Of a stretch of DNA of 64,000 nucleotides, positions 3,301 through 63,969 are shown one piece after another. The DNA is from a virus (taxonomy: Duplodnaviria; Caudoviricetes), in IMG/VR virus record IMGVR_UViG_3300033072_000473, positions 1 through 64,000 of that record. One strand, given 5' to 3'. The notes beneath the pieces were generated by a model. That model saw only the letters and a program-made list of their open reading frames with translations, was not told where the DNA came from and did no database searches. Made by a program: the position numbers and the translations under genes. The stretch's first letter is position 1. Every line of letters begins with the position of its first letter.

Positions 3301-4300
3301 AGCAGCAGGTACAAACGTAACTATTACTAGAACGGATGCTAATACTATTACTATTGATGCAACAGCTACCGGAGGCTCTGGTAGTCCCGGTGGTAATAGC
3401 GGCGAAATTCAGTATAATAATGCGGGTTCTTTTGCAGGTGCTGCAAACGTTGAAGTTGAAAATGGTCAACTTCGTTTGATCTCAGGTGCTATTCCAGCAA
3501 CCCCGGCAGCTGGCGGTATTAATATCTTCTCTCGTAGCAGAGCAGGGCGCCATCTGGCACATATCATCGGGCCTTCCGGTATCGACGTGGCTTTGCAGCC
3601 GGCACTATTCGGCAACTCGATTTATATGTGGTTACCCGGCACTGGCACGACTGTAGCCATCAACTTCGGCACCAGCTTCACCGCTCGTAATAGTGGCACA
3701 TCTGCTGCGCAGGCCACACCGACCAAGGCCAGTACCAACGCCATGTCTTCGCTTAACCGAGCGACGTTTGGTACAGGAACGACAGCTACAGGTGCTTCTG
3801 GTATTCAATCGGCAGCTACGGTCGCATGGCGCGGTAATGCGGCTAACCTTGGAGGATTCTTTTTCTTCGCTCGTTTTGGTATAGAGACTTTAGCTGCCGA
3901 TATGAGAGCTTTTGTTGGCTTGTCGGCGAACAACGCAGCAATGGCTGCTGACGGTTCAACATGGGCAAATACTATTGGTATTGAAAAAGGAACTGCCGAT
4001 TCCTTATGGTATCTAGTACAACGAAATGCAACTACAGTAACTCGTACAAGTTCAACATGTACAGTAACTGCCGGGCAAATTCTTGATTTAATGATGTTTG
4101 CTGCACCTAACGGTTCTGATGTTACAATGAGGCTAGTAGATGCAGTTACAGGTACAGTTTATGTAGATAATGTAGTATTAAATACTACTTTACCTGTAAA
4201 TACAGCCTTTTTATACATGCAAGCACATTGTCAATCAGTAACAGGTACAACTGCTAAACTATTAGCACTTAACCGTATATATTGTGAAACAGATTTATGA
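2..4300 (+). CDS. Large virion adhesin / tail-fibre-like protein, 5'-truncated by the window edge
   Basis: The frame is open from nt 2, with no stop, into the 1299-aa ORF given as 401..4300. It has an N-terminal Ser-Gly-X repeat, Thr/Ser/Gly-rich beta-type segments, a duplicated D(L/M)GINSS domain and duplicated TLVSGT.IKTIN motifs typical of fibres. Confidence 0.75.
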   Translation, partial: GISGYSGFSGISGYSGFSGISGYSGSGISGYSGSGISGFSGFSGISGYSGSGISGYSGFSGISGWSGISGYSGSGISGFSGFSGTSGYSGFSGISGYSGSGISGYSGFSGSGISGFSGWSGISGYSGAGGGNVVGPASSTNNTVALFDGTTGKLIKSSNTLLGTAAAASTSDFATAAQGLLANTALQQGAPFLTQTEHTSGNPSDGLVIDYLHPYARLSVQANDGIRFYTQGVADTLIAEFKSNGDTDLTGVLSVGGGSLLGGATNPQIAASGSANNYIQLYIHNDSAQESASSDLIAYPNNGADLHGYVDLGINSSTFSDANYSVTGPNEAYLLASAPSGSGNSGNMVYVTDSTGTTNAHQWFVGGFNQAKTAWKMQLGSTGLDFKTSILLNGSAGTSGYVLTSAGAGAVPTWQPAAGDMAKSVYDTNNDGKVNSADTADSVPWSGITSKPTDLVTLTGAQTLTNKLLDSPSVQGPLLVYGPTVTSPSNSIYSVATILCNMNQYREVSFRNINNGTDASADFVAYNDATNADSFFIDMGINSSNFSSATYSIFTPNSGYLYTGGSGSLQPSHLYVGTGTVGSHLYFFSGGTSTSNLRAWFNDDTGNLIINSTTDDNTNKLQVTGSITATELHLSGSAYAAGAVTYPSQLATKAYVDNAASTGIHVHTAVKVEKHGSWTVTYADGGSTLTVTDITLGTTLTTSQVHNLVINDVVYFTTTTNGVTLNTPYFVYSTPTTTSFQIAAQYNGEEIATLINGTGLSIVCKANTGVGATLTNAGTQAVLNVGGLDLVVNDRVAVIRTTDPHQNGIYTVTNIGSASTNWVLTRAADSNKYSPDDTSGLSKGDYFYVQQGSPGAGESYVITTDSTILFGITPITFSLFNAAVTWTVNAPLNLTGTTLSLTGQVAATNGGTGQANVTTGDILYGSGTDTWSRLAKGTAYKALVMNASGTNIEWNAIALNQSAAVSGQLAIANGGTGASTDVAARTALGLAIGTNVQAWSTNLDSWSGLATSSKQDTLVSGTSIKTINSTSILGSGDIAVQATLVSGTNIKTINGTTILGSGNITTTDTNTTYSVSAETTTGGALLRLTDSSAVTDDVKLAAGTNVTITRTDANTITIDATATGGSGSPGGNSGEIQYNNAGSFAGAANVEVENGQLRLISGAIPATPAAGGINIFSRSRAGRHLAHIIGPSGIDVALQPALFGNSIYMWLPGTGTTVAINFGTSFTARNSGTSAAQATPTKASTNAMSSLNRATFGTGTTATGASGIQSAATVAWRGNAANLGGFFFFARFGIETLAADMRAFVGLSANNAAMAADGSTWANTIGIEKGTADSLWYLVQRNATTVTRTSSTCTVTAGQILDLMMFAAPNGSDVTMRLVDAVTGTVYVDNVVLNTTLPVNTAFLYMQAHCQSVTGTTAKLLALNRIYCETDL

Positions 4301-4434
4301 TTTTTGATGTAATTCAAGACCAAAATGGAACTTTGCAGTTAATAGAGCATGGAACTACAGTACCAGAAGGTTGGACTATAGTTGTAACTACCTCTGATGC
4401 AAATTACCTTGACTATCTGGCTACCTTAGCCTAA
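4297..4434 (+). CDS. 45-aa protein (MIFDVIQDQNG...), possible fibre chaperone; not in ORF track
   Basis: ATGA overlap with the upstream stop; ends TAA at 4432-4434, just before a hairpin. Confidence 0.55.
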   Translation: MIFDVIQDQNGTLQLIEHGTTVPEGWTIVVTTSDANYLDYLATLA

Positions 4435-4438
4435 GAAA

Positions 4439-4464
4439 TAGCTAGGAGGTTCGCCTCCTAGCTA
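4439..4464 (+). terminator. 11-bp hairpin with UUCG loop (terminator or processing site)
   Basis: tagctaggagg-ttcg-cctcctagcta; no clear U-tract. Confidence 0.5.
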
Positions 4465-4489
4465 CCATTAATTAAATTAATAAAATAGA

Positions 4490-5764
4490 ATGAAATATAG
4501 TATTGTAATACCAACCTATAACCACTGTAATACCCTACTAAAGCCTTGCTTAGAATCTATATTTAAGTATACTGATATGGCTGATGTAGAATTAGTTATC
4601 TCTGCTAATGGTTGTACAGATAATACACAAGATTATTTAAATAATCTACAACGTAATTTTACAGAGTTAGGGTTTGAACAGCACTTAAAAGTAGTGTATT
4701 CTGAGCAGCCTCTTGGTTTTGCCAAAGCTATTAATTTAGGTATCATGGCAACTACTACAGAAAAAATAGTATTGTTAAATAATGATATTATTTTACTAGA
4801 GCAGTTTAAAAATCAGTGGTTAGATATGCTCAATGCTCCTTTTAATCAAGATACTAATTGTGGTATTTCATGCCCAATTATACAGTACTCTCCAGAAGCA
4901 AATCATAACTTTGCAGTATTTTTCTGTGTAATGGTAGATAAAAGGGTATTTAATACTATTGGTTTATTAAACGAAGAATATGGTATTGGTAGTGGTGAAG
5001 ATGTAGAGTTTTGCATAGAGGCTTTAAAAGCTGGATTCAATATTCTAGAGTGTGTTCCAAAACAGTATTTAAATGATGTAATGTACACGGGAAGTTTCCC
5101 TATATATCATAAAGGTGAACAAACAGTTTTAGATAGTAGTTTAGTTTCAGATTATAAAAGTGTATATTACCAAAATGGTCTAAAACTAGCTAGAAAGTAT
5201 AATATTGAGCATTACAGAAAACTTTTAAATAATAATTATGAGCGTCATCTGTCTATTAATGGAGAACAGGTTCCTCCGCGCGAGCAAGCTAGGTATTTAT
5301 GGGCTTCTAGTAGTACTATAGGTGCCAAAGTACTAGAACTTGGCTGTTCTAACGGGTATGGGTCACAATATTTTAAAAATGTTGAGTATACTGGTATAGA
5401 TTATGATCCTCAAATTATTGAGTGTGCTAAACAAGAAAATTGGGGTACTAATAAACAGTTTATTCATGGAGATATTAATACTCTAGAACTAGAGTACTAT
5501 GATACTATTGTTGCTATGGAAGTAATCGAGCATCTAGACAATGGTCTGGAAATTGTAGAAAAGCTCAAAAAATACTGTAAACGATTACTAGTAACTGTTC
5601 CTTATAAAGAACCGCCCGGTTTATGGGGAGAACACCATAAGCTACACTGGTTAGAAGAATCCCATCTACCTGGGTTTACATACAAGTTCTGTGATGAATT
5701 TGGTAATATTCATGACTCACCACATGGTGAAATTAATTTAATGCTTTGTCAGTATGACCACTAA
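4490..5764 (+). CDS. GT2 glycosyltransferase fused to a class I SAM methyltransferase
   Basis: N-terminal YSIVIPTYN, LLNNDI and EDVEFC (GT-A fold); C-terminal VLELGCSNGYG, GIDYD and MEVIEHL (SAM-binding fold). Confidence 0.85.
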   Translation: MKYSIVIPTYNHCNTLLKPCLESIFKYTDMADVELVISANGCTDNTQDYLNNLQRNFTELGFEQHLKVVYSEQPLGFAKAINLGIMATTTEKIVLLNNDIILLEQFKNQWLDMLNAPFNQDTNCGISCPIIQYSPEANHNFAVFFCVMVDKRVFNTIGLLNEEYGIGSGEDVEFCIEALKAGFNILECVPKQYLNDVMYTGSFPIYHKGEQTVLDSSLVSDYKSVYYQNGLKLARKYNIEHYRKLLNNNYERHLSINGEQVPPREQARYLWASSSTIGAKVLELGCSNGYGSQYFKNVEYTGIDYDPQIIECAKQENWGTNKQFIHGDINTLELEYYDTIVAMEVIEHLDNGLEIVEKLKKYCKRLLVTVPYKEPPGLWGEHHKLHWLEESHLPGFTYKFCDEFGNIHDSPHGEINLMLCQYDH

Positions 5765-58295: not shown

Positions 58296-58359
58296 AGTTT
58301 ATGAATTCTTTTAATTAAACTCAGAAATAGTATTTTATAAGTTTAATTAAAGTAATTCA

Positions 58360-58660
58360 AGTTTATTTTTCTGTTACTAGGAAAATAAACAAACCCTAAG
58401 CAGTATTTAGGCTGCTAAAGCAAAGGTATTATCGTTTGCGTTTACTTTATTTGCTTTTTACGTCTACTCCTGACGTGTTGCCCTATCAACTATCTCACGC
58501 TGTCGAAACCAGGTCAGGCCCATCAAAAGCATACTAGGGAATCGAACCCCATTTCTAGAATAGTTCCAAACGACCAGAGCGACTGGCAGTATGCTTTTGG
58601 TGGACCTGGGCGGAATCGAACCGCCGTCCAACGCGCCTTTATATCAAAGGTTATACAACA
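58360..58660 (-). ncRNA. ssrA: Circularly permuted (two-piece) tmRNA
   Basis: Acceptor piece (about 58660-58598) ends ggcggTTCGATTccgcc-caggtcc-A-CCA. After a 76-nt spacer, the coding piece starts GGGCCTGACCTGGTTTCGAC at 58521 (G3:U70). Tag GCA AAC GAT AAT ACC TTT GCT TTA GCA GCC TAA = ANDNTFALAA at 58439-58407. Outer ends approximate. Confidence 0.9.
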
Positions 58661-58661
58661 A

Positions 58662-58907
58662 TTACTTACAAGTAGCAAGCCACTTTCTGATTTCTTCTAC
58701 AGTCTTAACACCGCTAATAGAATGTTTACTAGGGAGATGTAGTAGTGTTGGTACTCCGCGGATCATATATTCATCTACAAGATCTGGGTGTACATCAATA
58801 TCTACTACTTCTACATCAATACCTAAATCTGCACTTTCCAAGTTTTTGGCAAGTGCCTTACATGGTTGACACCAACTAGCAGTAAATCTGAGAACTTTTT
58901 CTTGCAT
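58662..58907 (-). CDS. Thioredoxin-like protein (start moved to MQEKVL)
   Basis: WCQPC active site, cis-Pro GVPTL; SD ggag. Confidence 0.88.
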   Translation of the reverse strand: MQEKVLRFTASWCQPCKALAKNLESADLGIDVEVVDIDVHPDLVDEYMIRGVPTLLHLPSKHSISGVKTVEEIRKWLATCK

Positions 58908-59022
58908 ATTATCTCCGTTCTTAGGGCTAGAACCGCGATGCAACCGACAGTGCCTAGGTATCTTCTATTTAATCGCTCGAACGTTTAAGACTTGTTCAGT
59001 CTGCGAACCCTGTTCTTTAATT

Positions 59023-59343
59023 TGGTACCCGTGGCCGGAATCGAACCGGCATGCTTGCGCGAGGGATTTTAAGCGGTTATGTCCTAAAGTTTCCTAAAGG
59101 CCCGGACTATCTCTTTACCTTCAACACTACTTGTTAAGGTAGTGGGCGTTCTTGCTGGTTATTAAGAGGGCTAAACCTCTCCAGTAGTCTCTACACCTTC
59201 CAATACTGTAGTATTGGCTTGGCTCGCGATTGCCATTTTACAGACTCTCCCGAATTAACCCACAGTTTATCTAACTATTTCTAATTAGAGGGGACTATCA
59301 GTTTCTGCTGATCCCTTGTGTCTTCCTATTTCACCACACGGGC
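59023..59343 (-). tRNA. tRNA-Leu(TAA) interrupted by a group I intron
   Basis: 5' exon gcccgtg...cacaaggga(t); 3' exon (c)ttaaaatccct...gccggTTCGATTccggc-cacgggt-A-CCA. Confidence 0.88.
59074..59310 (-). mobile_element. ORF-less group I intron, about 237 nt, IC3-like core
   Basis: P1 gggaU pairs with Gtccc (U.G); Q ggcaatcgcgagcc, R gtgtagagactac, S aagagatagtcc; GAAA-capped P9; terminal G. Confidence 0.85.
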
Positions 59344-59344
59344 A

Positions 59345-60061
59345 TTATGTTCCATAATGCTTTAAGTTATACTCTTCTAGATCTATTCTGTTTCCTTTTG
59401 CAATATTCTCTTCTGGAGTTAAATATTGCAGATTGGCAACAACGTGTAGCCCAGATACTAGCTCACCTTTTAATGGTAATATATGATCTACATGTAACCC
59501 TTTAGGGCAGTTCCTATAAAATTCTTGTAAACCTTTTATATCTTCCCAATTAACGCACCGTAAAGAACGTTCACCTTTATAGTGCTGATTTCGCTCTAGA
59601 ATTTTAGTATAATTCTTTTCATAAGACCGTTTATGTGCTTCTTTAGTACTGTCTTTTGAATACGCAATTTTATTTAATTCTTTTCTACAACTTTTACAAT
59701 AATGGTGTCTACCACAAGTTGCACTATTGTCTATATCAAATTCTTTGAAGGTCTTTATCTCTCTACAGGAGATACAAAGTTTATACTCAATAAATATTAG
59801 TAATTTCCACTTCCAAGTTTCGTTGCCGCCGTTTAGCTTTCCAAATTTTGGAACAAAGTATTCATCTAATACTCTATTAATGGTTTGCGCACCTCTATTC
59901 AATAGTTTAGCAGCTTTTGGTATTGTACCTTGCTCAAGTATGGCTAAAATCATATCACCGGCCAATACTTCGGCAGTATTGGATCTAGCCTTTCTTAGCA
60001 CTGTATTATACTCTAAATTAAGTTTATTAAGTATTAAAGTTGTTAATTCTTGATTTGTCAT
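59345..60061 (-). CDS. Free-standing HNH endonuclease (start moved to MTNQEL)
   Basis: CxxC pairs; HVDHILPL...GLHVVANLQYL...N..K.N; SD ggagg. Confidence 0.88.
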   Translation of the reverse strand: MTNQELTTLILNKLNLEYNTVLRKARSNTAEVLAGDMILAILEQGTIPKAAKLLNRGAQTINRVLDEYFVPKFGKLNGGNETWKWKLLIFIEYKLCISCREIKTFKEFDIDNSATCGRHHYCKSCRKELNKIAYSKDSTKEAHKRSYEKNYTKILERNQHYKGERSLRCVNWEDIKGLQEFYRNCPKGLHVDHILPLKGELVSGLHVVANLQYLTPEENIAKGNRIDLEEYNLKHYGT

Positions 60062-60080
60062 TTGTGTCCTCCATTTAAAT

Positions 60081-60109
60081 ATTATAAATTTAGAAGACAT
60101 AAAAGTCAA
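60081..60109 (-). promoter_or_regulatory. Promoter of the HNH gene
   Basis: TTGACT-17-TATAAT; spacer tgtcttc can pair with SD ggaggaca. Confidence 0.75.
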
Positions 60110-60119
60110 ATTTAATTTT

Positions 60120-60203
60120 TGGTACCCTCGGTCGGACTCGAACCGACACGCAACTAAGCCCAGGGCCTAAACCTGGTGGATATACCAATTCTCCTACGAG
60201 GGT
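60120..60203 (-). tRNA. tRNA-Leu(TAG)
   Basis: ccagg-TT TAG GC-cctgg, variable arm, A73, CCA. Confidence 0.9.
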
Positions 60204-60205
60204 AT

Positions 60206-60934
60206 AGTATAGGAAATTGTTCTTCGTCTACTTCACATGCACTTCTTGAAACCTACAAGTACTAGCGTGTGCCATGTTTTTCGATCTCGCTCAGAAGTAG
60301 GTTCTAGCGTTATCTCTCCGAGATCTATTTAGACTAGATATACTAAGGGCATGACTCCCGTTCTACTATTAGAATAAATAAACTCTGCGTTAAGAACAAT
60401 TTACTATACTGACAGGCACTCCATACTGTCATTAGGGGACGGGTATCGCAATCCACACGGGGTTCATTTGTCATGGTAACTACCTAGTATCACGGGAACT
60501 CCTACCCGAGTCTAGACTAATTGGGAATACTAGTAACGGCTTTCTGTTATCTCATAATTCAGTAGCTCACCAAACCCATTGGCCTTGTCACATAAGTCGC
60601 CCAAATATGAGTCGGGTCGAAACAGAGTACTTGGTCTACGGCTTGTTACCAGTATAGTTAAGAAGCATCTTTGGCTGTCCCGAAGTTCGAAAACAAGGTA
60701 AAGTCCTACAAGTTGCTTCTTGACTATACCGCCTCCGCCGAGGCATTGTGGTATAGTGTTAGTGATACCTAAGGTAATCCGCACTCCTTTGTATCCCCTA
60801 AAAGGGCTGAGACTCGAACTCAGTCGGTATTAAGTATCTTTTAAAGGTCTTGCTAACTTCCGACCCCCTAGTCTAACTGTCGACAAGTTACTAGGATTTA
60901 GTCTGATTCTTTGTTTATCTTTCGCCGAATCAGA
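60206..60934 (-). ncRNA. Large (about 730 nt) highly structured ncRNA candidate, GOLLD/ROOL-like by size and context
   Basis: Runs from a promoter to tRNA-Leu with no credible ORF; many helices, a T-arm (60807-60823) and repeated AGTA/GAA loop-E-like words. Confidence 0.55.
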
Positions 60935-60940
60935 AATAAT

Positions 60941-60969
60941 ATTATACGCTAATAGTTAGCGATAAACAA
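60941..60969 (-). promoter_or_regulatory. sigma70-type promoter of the large ncRNA
   Basis: TTGTTT-17-TATAAT; palindrome cgctaa-tag-ttagcg in spacer. Confidence 0.7.
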
Positions 60970-60977
60970 GTCAAAAT

Positions 60978-61979
60978 TTACTTATTCATTAGCATCATCA
61001 TCATGAGCATATTTTGATCCATCTGCTTTCCGCCCATCATGCTCATCATAGCAAAAGTTTTCATATCAAACTCTTTGCCGTCGCCCATCATCATAGCCAT
61101 CATCATAGGATTGGTATTTTCACCAAACATATTCTTAACGGCTAGAACAGTATTCTTACCGAAGAATAGGTTGGTTACTTGCCCAACCTGCTTTACTTCG
61201 CCGTTAAGCGTAACTACTTCATAGCCACTTTCAGTTTTCTGCTTGAAGAAATAGGCATCTTGCCCGCTAATGATAATGTCCCCTTCTTCTAGCGTTTCTA
61301 CAGCCACTCGCATAGCAAAAGCTGGTACTTTAACACCAAAATCAGTAATAGGATTAACGGAAACGCCACCATCAACGTAGACAGAAATCCCGTCTTGGGA
61401 CTGTACACCGAACTTTCCTGATTGGATGTCGATTGCAACATTCTTGACCTCACGAAAGAAAGAGTCACGCATATTAGATTGAATGTTCATTTGTGTATCC
61501 TTAGATTTATTAAGCTGTTCGTTAACGTATTTTTTAGTTGCTACTTCTTCACCATTTACTACTAAGTTTCCAGTAGTGTTGCTAGTTAAATTAGCAAAGC
61601 GCTTAGAGGTTCCTGAAGCTGCAAAAGTATATGCCGCAGTATTTTGTAGTGAAGAAGGAAGTCGTTGAAGAATTAAGTAGTTAGGAGTATATTTAGTGAT
61701 AGTGTATTTAGCACCGTAACCGGCGAGTGTTTGTGCTGCTGCTACCTCATATTGAGGTATATCAGCATTGCGAATATACGCAACATGTACACCCTTAATC
61801 AACACTGCGTAGGCCTGCCCATTAACTCCATTAGTATTATACTCATGTTTAATCTCAACCTCAGGTTTAATACTACCTGGATCATTAATTTGAGGAATAA
61901 AACTTTTTAGGTATTCTTGATCTTGCGTAGGTCTAAACCGCATACCTACTGCAATTAATTTATCTGGATATGAGGACAT
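60978..61979 (-). CDS. Hypothetical protein: HIRAN-like N-domain and Met-rich C-terminus
   Basis: VGMRFR...E..N.....A.AV......VAYI; ends with Met-rich helices. Confidence 0.6.
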   Translation of the reverse strand: MSSYPDKLIAVGMRFRPTQDQEYLKSFIPQINDPGSIKPEVEIKHEYNTNGVNGQAYAVLIKGVHVAYIRNADIPQYEVAAAQTLAGYGAKYTITKYTPNYLILQRLPSSLQNTAAYTFAASGTSKRFANLTSNTTGNLVVNGEEVATKKYVNEQLNKSKDTQMNIQSNMRDSFFREVKNVAIDIQSGKFGVQSQDGISVYVDGGVSVNPITDFGVKVPAFAMRVAVETLEEGDIIISGQDAYFFKQKTESGYEVVTLNGEVKQVGQVTNLFFGKNTVLAVKNMFGENTNPMMMAMMMGDGKEFDMKTFAMMSMMGGKQMDQNMLMMMMLMNK

Positions 61980-63372: not shown

Positions 63373-63969
63373 TTATACTTCAAATTTATTATGTTTTGAA
63401 CAATTATCTTGTGCAGGTAAATATTGTAAATTAATTTCTACATGAAGCCCCGATACTAATTCTCCCTGTAGTGGGATTATATGGTCTACATGATAACCTT
63501 CGGGACAGTTTTTATATATTTCTTTTATTCTTGAAATATTAGCCCAATTTGGAGTTCTTTGTAACTTGCTACACTTATAAGTAGCTGTACGTTCTGTTTG
63601 TGTCTTTTTAGTTGTAGTATAATGACAGGTTTTACACATTGTTTGTAGCCCGTCTTTCCTACTAGCGTTTTTTCTAAAATTATCTATACTATGTACTTTA
63701 TTGCAGTGACTACAGTATTTTAGTTCAAATAAAGGCAGTATATACGAATGTATTTTTGTAGCAGACTTTGTTCTATTAGGAAATAGTTCTGATAGAAACT
63801 TTGAAATAGTTTTAGCATCTTTATTTAAAAGATATGCTAAGTTATAATTTTTAAACTTAGAAAAAGTATCTATTACTAATTCCGGGCATAAGTTATAGTT
63901 TTTACATATAGTAAAATACTGAGGTTGTAGCACTAGTATGCAATTAAGCAAAATTTCTTTATCTGTCAT
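63373..63969 (-). CDS. Free-standing HNH endonuclease, second copy
   Basis: CSHC, CKTC; HVDHIIPLQGELVSGLHVEINLQYL..N.SK.N; same family as 59345-60061. Confidence 0.88.
   Translation of the reverse strand: MTDKEILLNCILVLQPQYFTICKNYNLCPELVIDTFSKFKNYNLAYLLNKDAKTISKFLSELFPNRTKSATKIHSYILPLFELKYCSHCNKVHSIDNFRKNASRKDGLQTMCKTCHYTTTKKTQTERTATYKCSKLQRTPNWANISRIKEIYKNCPEGYHVDHIIPLQGELVSGLHVEINLQYLPAQDNCSKHNKFEV

Follow-up and report, generated by a model that had tools for sequence, protein, structure and literature searches.

Two separate selfish elements most likely share one transfer RNA (tRNA) gene in a stretch of viral DNA of 64,000 nucleotides (positions 1 to 64,000 of the IMG/VR virus record IMGVR_UViG_3300033072_000473), referred to below as the window. 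The gene is tRNA-Leu(UAA), and the elements are a group I intron, which interrupts the gene and contains no open reading frame (ORF), and a free-standing gene for an HNH endonuclease, which ends directly in front of it. The favored reading, to which a probability of about 0.55 is given, is that the HNH gene would spread by intron-less homing and that the intron would be mobilized by it in trans. The window comes from a virus record of 87 kb, with a DNA polymerase 47% identical to those of T5-like (Demerecviridae) phages, and near-identical DNA is contained in wastewater and activated-sludge sequencing runs. On the minus strand between 51.9 and 62.1 kb, default ARAGORN finds 20 tRNA genes and misses the intron-containing tRNA-Leu(UAA), which is added only when introns are allowed. 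The coordinates of the tRNA-Leu/HNH/intron locus all refer to the minus strand, and its features are the following.

60120..60203, minus strand: tRNA-Leu(UAG), 84 nt, the upstream edge of the slot that holds the HNH gene; found by ARAGORN and conserved in the relative L001
60081..60109, minus strand: putative sigma-70-type promoter of the HNH cassette, TTGACT-17-TATAAT, agreeing with 11 of 12 consensus positions
60068..60072, minus strand: putative ribosome-binding site GGAGG, 6 nt before the ATG at 60061, read from the sequence
59345..60061, minus strand: free-standing HNH (His-Me finger) endonuclease gene, 238 amino acids plus stop
59023..59343, minus strand: tRNA-Leu(UAA) including its 238-nt intron, found by ARAGORN with introns allowed
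59312..59343, minus strand: 5' exon of tRNA-Leu(UAA), 32 nt, ending in ...AGGGA (tRNA positions 27-31)
59074..59311, minus strand: ORF-less group I intron, 238 nt, its exact 5' boundary placed from homologues
59023..59073, minus strand: 3' exon of tRNA-Leu(UAA), 51 nt, starting with the complete loop CUUAAAA and encoding CCA

This arrangement agrees with that described in an earlier note made from the letters of the window, according to which a group I intron without an ORF lies in tRNA-Leu(UAA) and an HNH gene with its own promoter is placed between two tRNA-Leu genes, with its stop abutting the 5' end of the second. A single base (59344) separates the HNH stop codon (TAA, 59347..59345) from G1 of tRNA-Leu(UAA) at 59343, and the intron begins 34 nt past the stop codon (33 nt between). 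Upstream, tRNA-Leu(UAG) at 60203..60120 is followed by a 58-nt spacer that holds GGAGG and the near-consensus sigma-70 site, which is predicted to function as a promoter. A program-made list of ORFs had the HNH gene start at TTG 60109; this was rejected as that TTG forms the first three bases of the −35 box, and for that reason ATG 60061 is taken as the likely start. The ORF list of the window holds no ORF of at least 50 amino acids inside the intron, which is matched by the Rfam group I intron model (RF00028) over 59310..59083 with 59.6 bits (gathering score 50; E-value 1e-12). An 88%-identical relative, L001, keeps the promoter, with both hexamers identical, as well as the ribosome-binding site, the ORF, the 1-nt junction and the intron. 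There is no terminator-like site in 58600..61000, and therefore the HNH message and the pre-tRNA are probably parts of one transcript.

The case for an independently mobile HNH gene is carried by its family, which on the evidence of mapped loci is a large, mostly unannotated group of free-standing cassettes slotted between phage tRNA genes. Metagenomes contain 147 homologues of the window protein, and over 500 family loci are present in each of two collections; no full-length homologue was found in about 50,000 deposited phage genomes, where 0 records cover at least 80% of the protein. By profile, 160 family loci were collected and their tRNAs mapped, and 51 of these have a full HNH ORF. The HNH stop lies 1–2 nt before tRNA-Leu(UAA) in the window, L001, L083, L004, L087 and L006, and other family ORFs overlap the 5' end of the next tRNA by 10–39 nt (tRNA-Leu in L088, tRNA-Met in L097 and L111, tRNA-Cys in L014, tRNA-Val in L094, tRNA-Asp in L107 and tRNA-Ile in L135). 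A rule that ties the stop codon in this way to the following tRNA, next to its 5' end or overlapping it, was not found described in the literature. At their other end the ORFs begin 35–79 nt after the upstream tRNA, and TTGAYN-17-TATAAT is located ahead of the ORF in at least 20 of the 51 members.

The slot between tRNA-Leu(UAG) and tRNA-Leu(UAA) is filled by a family member in the window, L001, L083, L084, L004, L006, L007, L087 and L088, and it is empty in L010, L005/L090, L098 and L052, where the two tRNA genes are 10–42 nt apart with no HNH gene between them. An intergenic ORF that some relatives have at a given locus and others lack there is the pattern of a free-standing homing endonuclease gene, and the address of this one, as judged from the mapped slots, is the tRNA gap. 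The upstream tRNA gene itself varies, as what ARAGORN names tRNA-Leu(UAG), by its anticodon alone, is only 77–78 nt long with a short variable arm in several relatives (L003:2343-2420, L083:1229-1306, L085:2349-2426, L007:2275-2351 and L088:2372-2449), compared with 84 nt in the window. The window also has a second family member, as follows.

63373..63969, minus strand: paralogous HNH cassette, 198 amino acids, 31% identical (tblastn E-value 7e-29), with PHROG matches

This copy is located 47 nt after a tRNA-Met gene and upstream of a gene for UvdE (PF03851), and has no adjacent intron. The HNH gene of L003 is also followed by a UvdE gene (63% amino acid identity), though that HNH is closer to the first copy of the window.

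The HNH protein of the slot has no Pfam match at E ≤ 0.01 and is recognized by PHROG profiles (phrog_1035, 3.5e-22; weaker HNH PHROGs include phrog_144, 1.7e-4), and PF01844 is matched by 14 of 34 family members (best E-value 9e-5). In a family alignment of 34 relatives D192-H193, N210 and N219 are invariant, as are the cysteines of a zinc ribbon (C96/C99/C122/C125). The protein can be divided into a helix-turn-helix (HTH)-like region (residues 1–93), the four-Cys zinc ribbon (94–126), a helical linker (127–183) and the HNH motif (approximately 185–225). An AlphaFold2 model (mean predicted local distance difference test score, pLDDT, 88.5) suggests a weak resemblance of residues 1–93 to winged-HTH DNA binders (Z 4–5), which dominates the VIA structure list. 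A Foldseek search with the whole model gave nothing at E ≤ 0.001, its weak rows including the HNH domains of Cas9, Hpy99I and the Gme HNH nickase, and in PDB sequences the family profile matched only the zinc ribbon of Hpy99I (E-value 0.15). Membership of the DHHRN/Endo VII group of F-CphI, which the PHROG label suggested, was rejected, as the family has the central HNH Asn and lacks DHDH...CX2C; because this signature of F-CphI and Endo VII is absent, the family is classed by its motifs as HNH proper. Between the window and L001 the ratio of nonsynonymous to synonymous divergence (dN/dS) of the HNH gene is 0.06 at a dS of 0.80. By these measures the gene is intact, free-standing and under purifying selection, and its product is predicted to be an active nuclease.

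The intron likewise shows signs of constraint. Elements P1 to P9 are present, together with a P7.1-like hairpin (59184..59155, between P7 and P3'), which introns of the L087/L024 type in other tRNAs lack, and an internal guide, AGUCCC (59296..59291). Homologues are located at the same site of the same tRNA in L001 and, more distantly, in three viral contigs found by a core-pattern scan (L218:2485-2793, L233:7400-7745 and L246:4465-4783). The structure was drawn by hand and tested on these five sequences, the window included. Over its 69 pairs from P1 to P10, 94.7% of cells are paired in the five homologues, compared with 31–46% when the partners are slid, and 25 pairs have changed on both sides, supporting P2 to P9. 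The catalytic core P3–P9 with its P3/P7 pseudoknot is that of a group I intron according to both the Rfam score and this covariation. The intron is 97.5% identical between the window and L001, while the silent sites of the neighboring HNH gene stand at a dS of 0.80, and on this comparative evidence the intron is a constrained ribozyme and not a relic. In L218, the stretch between a tail-fiber gene and the intron-containing tRNA-Leu holds a sub-threshold match to RAGATH-27 RNA (2048-2133; 59.5 bits, gathering score 76.1).

The position of the intron in the tRNA, and the base pair at its 5' splice site, were read from the same five sequences. The terminal G (omega G, 59074) is invariant and always followed by CUUAAAA. 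In P1, GGGA pairs with UCCC in all five homologues, L233 having one compensatory change from G-C to C-G, and the guide AGUCCC is complementary to the joined exons GGGA-CU, C(+1) pairing with G49 (P10) in all five. The conserved pair at the 5' splice site is A(−1):U50, in place of the usual U(−1)·G wobble. Because the base after GGGA varies (U in the window and L001; G, A and G in L218, L233 and L246, respectively) and the GGGA pairing is conserved, the reading that holds across the family places the intron between tRNA positions 31 and 32, with A(−1):U, and the intron family appears to be spliced after an A:U pair at that site. The 31/32 register gives a normal 7-nt loop, as in intron-less phage tRNA-Leu(UAA) genes. 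Only the window and L001 allow a U·G register one base downstream, which would make a loop of 8 nt; as a rule for the family, this register (splicing after U 59311, which forms U·G with G49) was rejected on the G, A and G of the other three homologues. Contigs that skip the intron were found neither in one RNA run, which is uninformative on splicing, nor in three DNA or mixed runs.

That the two elements are separate is evident from their distributions. The earlier note had proposed a partnership of HNH and intron and had pointed to their co-occurrence across relatives as a check on it, and this expectation failed, as the two are distributed independently. Among the nine closest full-length relatives with mapped tRNA context outside the window/L001 lineage (35–52% identity; homologues P0002, 68%, and P0003, 63%, are not among the nine), seven have the HNH gene directly upstream of an intron-less tRNA-Leu(UAA) (L083, L084, L004, L006, L007, L087 and L088). 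Conversely, the same intron is found in L233 with no HNH family member in its 92.9-kb record and in L246, a 5.3-kb fragment, where the 485 nt ahead of the tRNA hold no ORF. In the complete record of L218 (158.5 kb) a 20-bit zinc-ribbon match located elsewhere is all that resembles the family, and an unrelated HNH gene (phrog_10822, PF01844) lies 135 nt downstream of the intron-containing tRNA. With HNH genes beside intron-less alleles and the intron without HNH, this nuclease family therefore does not, on the distributions seen, need the intron for self-protection. An obligate partnership is thus contradicted by the relatives compared, and a loose link remains.

The order in which the elements arrived can be read from a quick maximum-likelihood tree, in which L083, intron-less and with its HNH stop 1 nt before the tRNA, is sister to the window plus L001 (Shimodaira–Hasegawa-like approximate likelihood ratio test, SH-aLRT, 97). 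These three lie inside a five-member clade (SH-aLRT 99) positioned downstream of tRNA(UAG), at 45–71 nt in four members and approximately 370 nt in L083. Because the intron-less L083 is sister to the window and L001 within this slot clade, the juxtaposition of HNH and tRNA is, according to the tree, older than the intron. No pattern of protective substitutions was found between the tRNA-Leu(UAA) genes of HNH-plus and HNH-minus genomes. Scans with exact flanks for a near-isogenic allele that lacks HNH or intron gave only the contig of L001 among viral contigs and nothing among genome contigs. Apart from one 336-nt DNA contig, no clean HNH-minus allele was found in one RNA run and three DNA or mixed runs. 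That contig, from a wastewater run (X4), joins 59030 to 60208 with near-identical flanks and 179 unrelated bases between them; the module of tRNA-Leu(UAG), HNH and tRNA-Leu(UAA) with intron is replaced in it, and the same run holds the full module at higher depth. A second joint, from 59050 to 60153, was rejected as an HNH-minus allele since it has only 22 bases on one side and is probably the tRNA of another organism.

Other introns in phage tRNA genes were surveyed from both directions. The core-pattern scan of viral contigs gave at least 117 loci, at least 56 of them (at least 43 non-redundant) in tRNA genes, and among the tRNA introns listed from it L279 has a family HNH gene at a distance of 65 nt and L278 a weak match to the family at 2.1 kb, so that group I introns in phage tRNAs are common in the absence of this HNH. 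In the HNH-centered loci (661 kb, searched with a tRNA-intron profile) the only full introns are those of L001, L087 and L024, and a 79-nt nhmmer match in L064 was rejected as an intron, not being confirmed by Rfam. The introns L087:752-1036 and L024:1990-2261 (the latter the same as L279:4304-4575) are ORF-less group I introns with Rfam scores of 46.8 and 46.3 bits, located in tRNAs 64–65 nt upstream of family HNH genes. The former follows U34 in a tRNA with anticodon UAG; the host of the latter is probably a tRNA(CAU), and two neighboring U·G registers are possible there. Long phage tRNA introns of 690–750 nt hold HNH ORFs of approximately 150–170 amino acids (PF01844/PF13392), and HNH genes of other families account for five of the six intron-internal ORFs tested (L222:105-883, L230:2763-3539, L243:9246-10024, L255:1826-2667 and L269:2056-2840).

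In the favored mechanism, intron-less homing with trans-mobilization, the HNH protein would nick or cut rival genomes that lack the HNH gene, in or near the tRNA junction, and the gene would be copied into the cut genome during repair. Protection of the HNH-carrying genome would come from the insertion of the gene itself or from sequence differences, and not from the intron. The intron would have arrived in tRNA-Leu(UAA) later, in the lineage of the window and L001, at a time when the HNH gene already occupied the slot, and with its start only 34 nt past the HNH stop it would be carried along by co-conversion in repair tracts begun by the nuclease (trans homing or hitch-hiking).

Several points weigh against this mechanism. 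In the HNH-centered loci introns occur in 3 of 63 HNH-adjacent tRNAs compared with 0 of 125 others (one-sided Fisher p = 0.036). In the opposite direction, Pfam HNH domains are found in at least 7 of the 58 ORFs that lie no farther than 600 nt from an ORF-less tRNA intron, compared with 4 of 130 ORFs of the same contigs at least 1.5 kb away (p = 0.02; 7 of 58 is a lower bound, and PF01844 and PF13392 can match one protein). This approximately four-fold enrichment is confounded by location in tRNA clusters, and the adjacency statistics hint at a link tighter than hitch-hiking. Empty and filled slots were compared in distant relatives (HNH 30–52% identical) and not in near-isogenic genomes, and the specificity of the window enzyme may differ from that of relatives that are 35–52% identical to it. 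Finally, the anatomy, conservation, selection and distributions are observed, and cleavage by HNH, its target, homing and intron splicing are predicted from sequence.

A strict form of collaborative homing, as the earlier note had envisaged on the anticodon arm, is considered unlikely. The HNH protein would cut the uninterrupted arm at or next to the intron site, and the intron would split that site, protect its own genome and be copied together with the HNH gene. An ORF-less intron and an adjacent free-standing endonuclease gene are indeed found; all of the parts needed are present and conserved in two lineages, 33 bp lie between the HNH gene and the insertion site, and three independent loci (window/L001, L087 and L024) have an intron in a tRNA adjoining a family HNH gene. 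The different HNH gene beside the same intron in L218 adds to this, the preponderance of HNH among intron-internal ORFs fits a pathway from neighbor to resident, and there is a precedent in psbA of cyanophage S-PM2 with F-CphI (PMC6083498). What is not found is co-distribution. Seven HNH relatives, including the sister lineage, sit beside an intron-less tRNA-Leu(UAA) that has evidently not been destroyed, the anticodon arms of the relatives' tRNA-Leu(UAA) genes differ widely, and the same intron occurs without the HNH gene. Of the partnership proposed on a tRNA gene, the intact and selected HNH, the slot polymorphism and the 34-nt closeness, which makes a link in mobility plausible, stand, and the shared distribution does not. 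An extended version, in which the HNH protein would cut uninterrupted anticodon arms, the 31/32 A:U intron would protect, and the pair would spread as a unit that overwrites the two-tRNA module of rivals, is improbable. If it were true, the 336-nt wastewater contig with its replaced module would be a susceptible allele, and the locus would be the first collaborative-homing system to act on a tRNA gene.

It is also doubtful that the adjacency is plain coincidence; on that reading both kinds of element, HNH cassettes and group I introns, are so frequent in the tRNA clusters of phages that some would be neighbors, and the HNH protein might be domesticated or serve in another nuclease role. Within 12 kb the window does hold two HNH genes of the family along with 21 tRNA genes, and among the at least 43 non-redundant tRNA introns a family HNH gene is near that of L279 (65 nt), with a weak match near that of L278 (2.1 kb); the association tests rest on three events or are confounded by tRNA-cluster location. 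On the other hand, only 33 nt lie between the elements, so that any recombination that HNH starts must include the intron; the adjacency statistics are weak but agree in both directions, and strong purifying selection on the HNH gene argues against a decaying gene. That the HNH gene was formerly encoded in the intron and moved out or was lost by it, leaving the pair as a decayed mobile intron, is very improbable, as the HNH ORFs of approximately 160 amino acids that do exist inside long phage tRNA introns are not detectably related to the window family (tblastn, 1e-6), the family is free-standing in all 51 full-ORF loci, mostly beside intron-less tRNAs, and the tree places intron gain after HNH in the slot.

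The surroundings of the locus include two further features downstream of the tRNA. A small thioredoxin/glutaredoxin-like ORF (58662-58907, minus strand; PF00085, 6e-11) lies directly after the intron-containing tRNA, and the corresponding stretch of L001 (approximately 4142-4860) does not align with it. A circularly permuted (two-piece) transfer-messenger RNA (tmRNA) with the tag ANDNTFALAA is located at 58353-58713 (minus strand; Rfam tmRNA_permuted, 139.6 bits), and two-piece tmRNAs are also present in L001 (5033-5300) and L014 (891-1262), the segment between the pieces being shorter in L001.

It has long been asked by what means group I introns without an ORF are maintained and spread, and the answers proposed are collaborative and trans homing. 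Their experimental basis lies in a few phage protein-coding genes, and the window locus has the same ingredients on a tRNA gene. Because the address of the nuclease family is the tRNA gap itself, related phages offer stages that can be compared, namely the empty slot, the nuclease only, the nuclease with the intron, the intron only, and the intron with an internal nuclease. The locus also allows one to ask if splicing by a group I intron is possible with an A:U pair at the 5' splice site. Should the two elements prove to be only loosely linked, the lesson would still be useful that an HNH gene next to an intron is not to be taken for its partner unless their distributions have been compared. 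The separate ingredients have all been described before, namely group I introns in tRNA-Leu(UAA), free-standing nucleases in the tRNA clusters of phages, and homing of the collaborative and trans kinds. No paper was found in the literature that describes the pairing of a free-standing HNH gene with an ORF-less intron on a phage tRNA gene; what is new, as far as the comparisons here indicate, is a tRNA-gap HNH family with a strict abutment rule and an intron type at position 31/32 with A(−1).

Each element has its counterparts among known systems. Like the bacterial tRNA-Leu(UAA) introns of Williams' survey, the window intron is small and ORF-less, lies in the anticodon region and ends in G. 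The bacterial introns are inserted between positions 34 and 35, however, whereas that of the window is between 31 and 32 (site 0), has A:U and not U·G before the 5' splice site, and carries the extra P7.1-like hairpin. Among the 5292 bacterial tRNA introns surveyed by Williams there are only U(−1) types plus one C(−1) type. In phages, group I introns tend to lie in protein-coding genes (2014 review, PMC3984707). An intron-encoded endonuclease with specificity for the anticodon region of cyanobacterial tRNA-fMet (Bonocora and Shub, 2001, as cited in PMC3984707) indicates that a homing endonuclease can target this part of a tRNA, but, unlike the window HNH, it is encoded inside the intron, belongs to another family and resides in a bacterial chromosome.

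Nucleases of phage tRNA clusters that cut tRNA genes are represented by SegB of T4 (GIY-YIG, T-loop region), with SegE of T4 as a case of intron-less homing into its own intergenic site (PMC2330249), and by F-TflI/II/IV of T5, which are H-N-H homologues in the tRNA cluster (Akulenko, 2004, as cited in PMC2330249). The resemblance of SegB and the F-Tfl enzymes to the window gene, itself from a T5-related phage, lies in a nuclease ORF in the tRNA cluster of a large lytic phage with presence/absence polymorphism, but these systems are without an intron, whereas the window HNH has one adjoining it. Collaborative homing is exemplified by the free-standing F-CphI and the ORF-less psbA intron of cyanophage S-PM2 and by a DNA polymerase intron in T3/T7-like phages (PMC6083498; reviewed in PMC3984707). 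There the psbA host gene is protein-coding and F-CphI has the DHHRN/Endo VII signature, whereas in the window the host gene is a tRNA gene and the nuclease has the HNH signature (D-H...N...N) as well as relatives that adjoin intron-less alleles, a situation not predicted under collaborative homing. In T4, the free-standing HNH enzyme MobE mobilizes the nrdB intron, the own endonuclease of which, I-TevIII, is defunct, and proximity suffices with no cut at the insertion site required (PMC2790892). The window pair differs in its setting in a tRNA gene and in an intron without an endonuclease remnant, yet in both cases a free-standing HNH gene lies beside a non-autonomous group I intron, and it is the mechanism of MobE and nrdB that is favored for the window pair.

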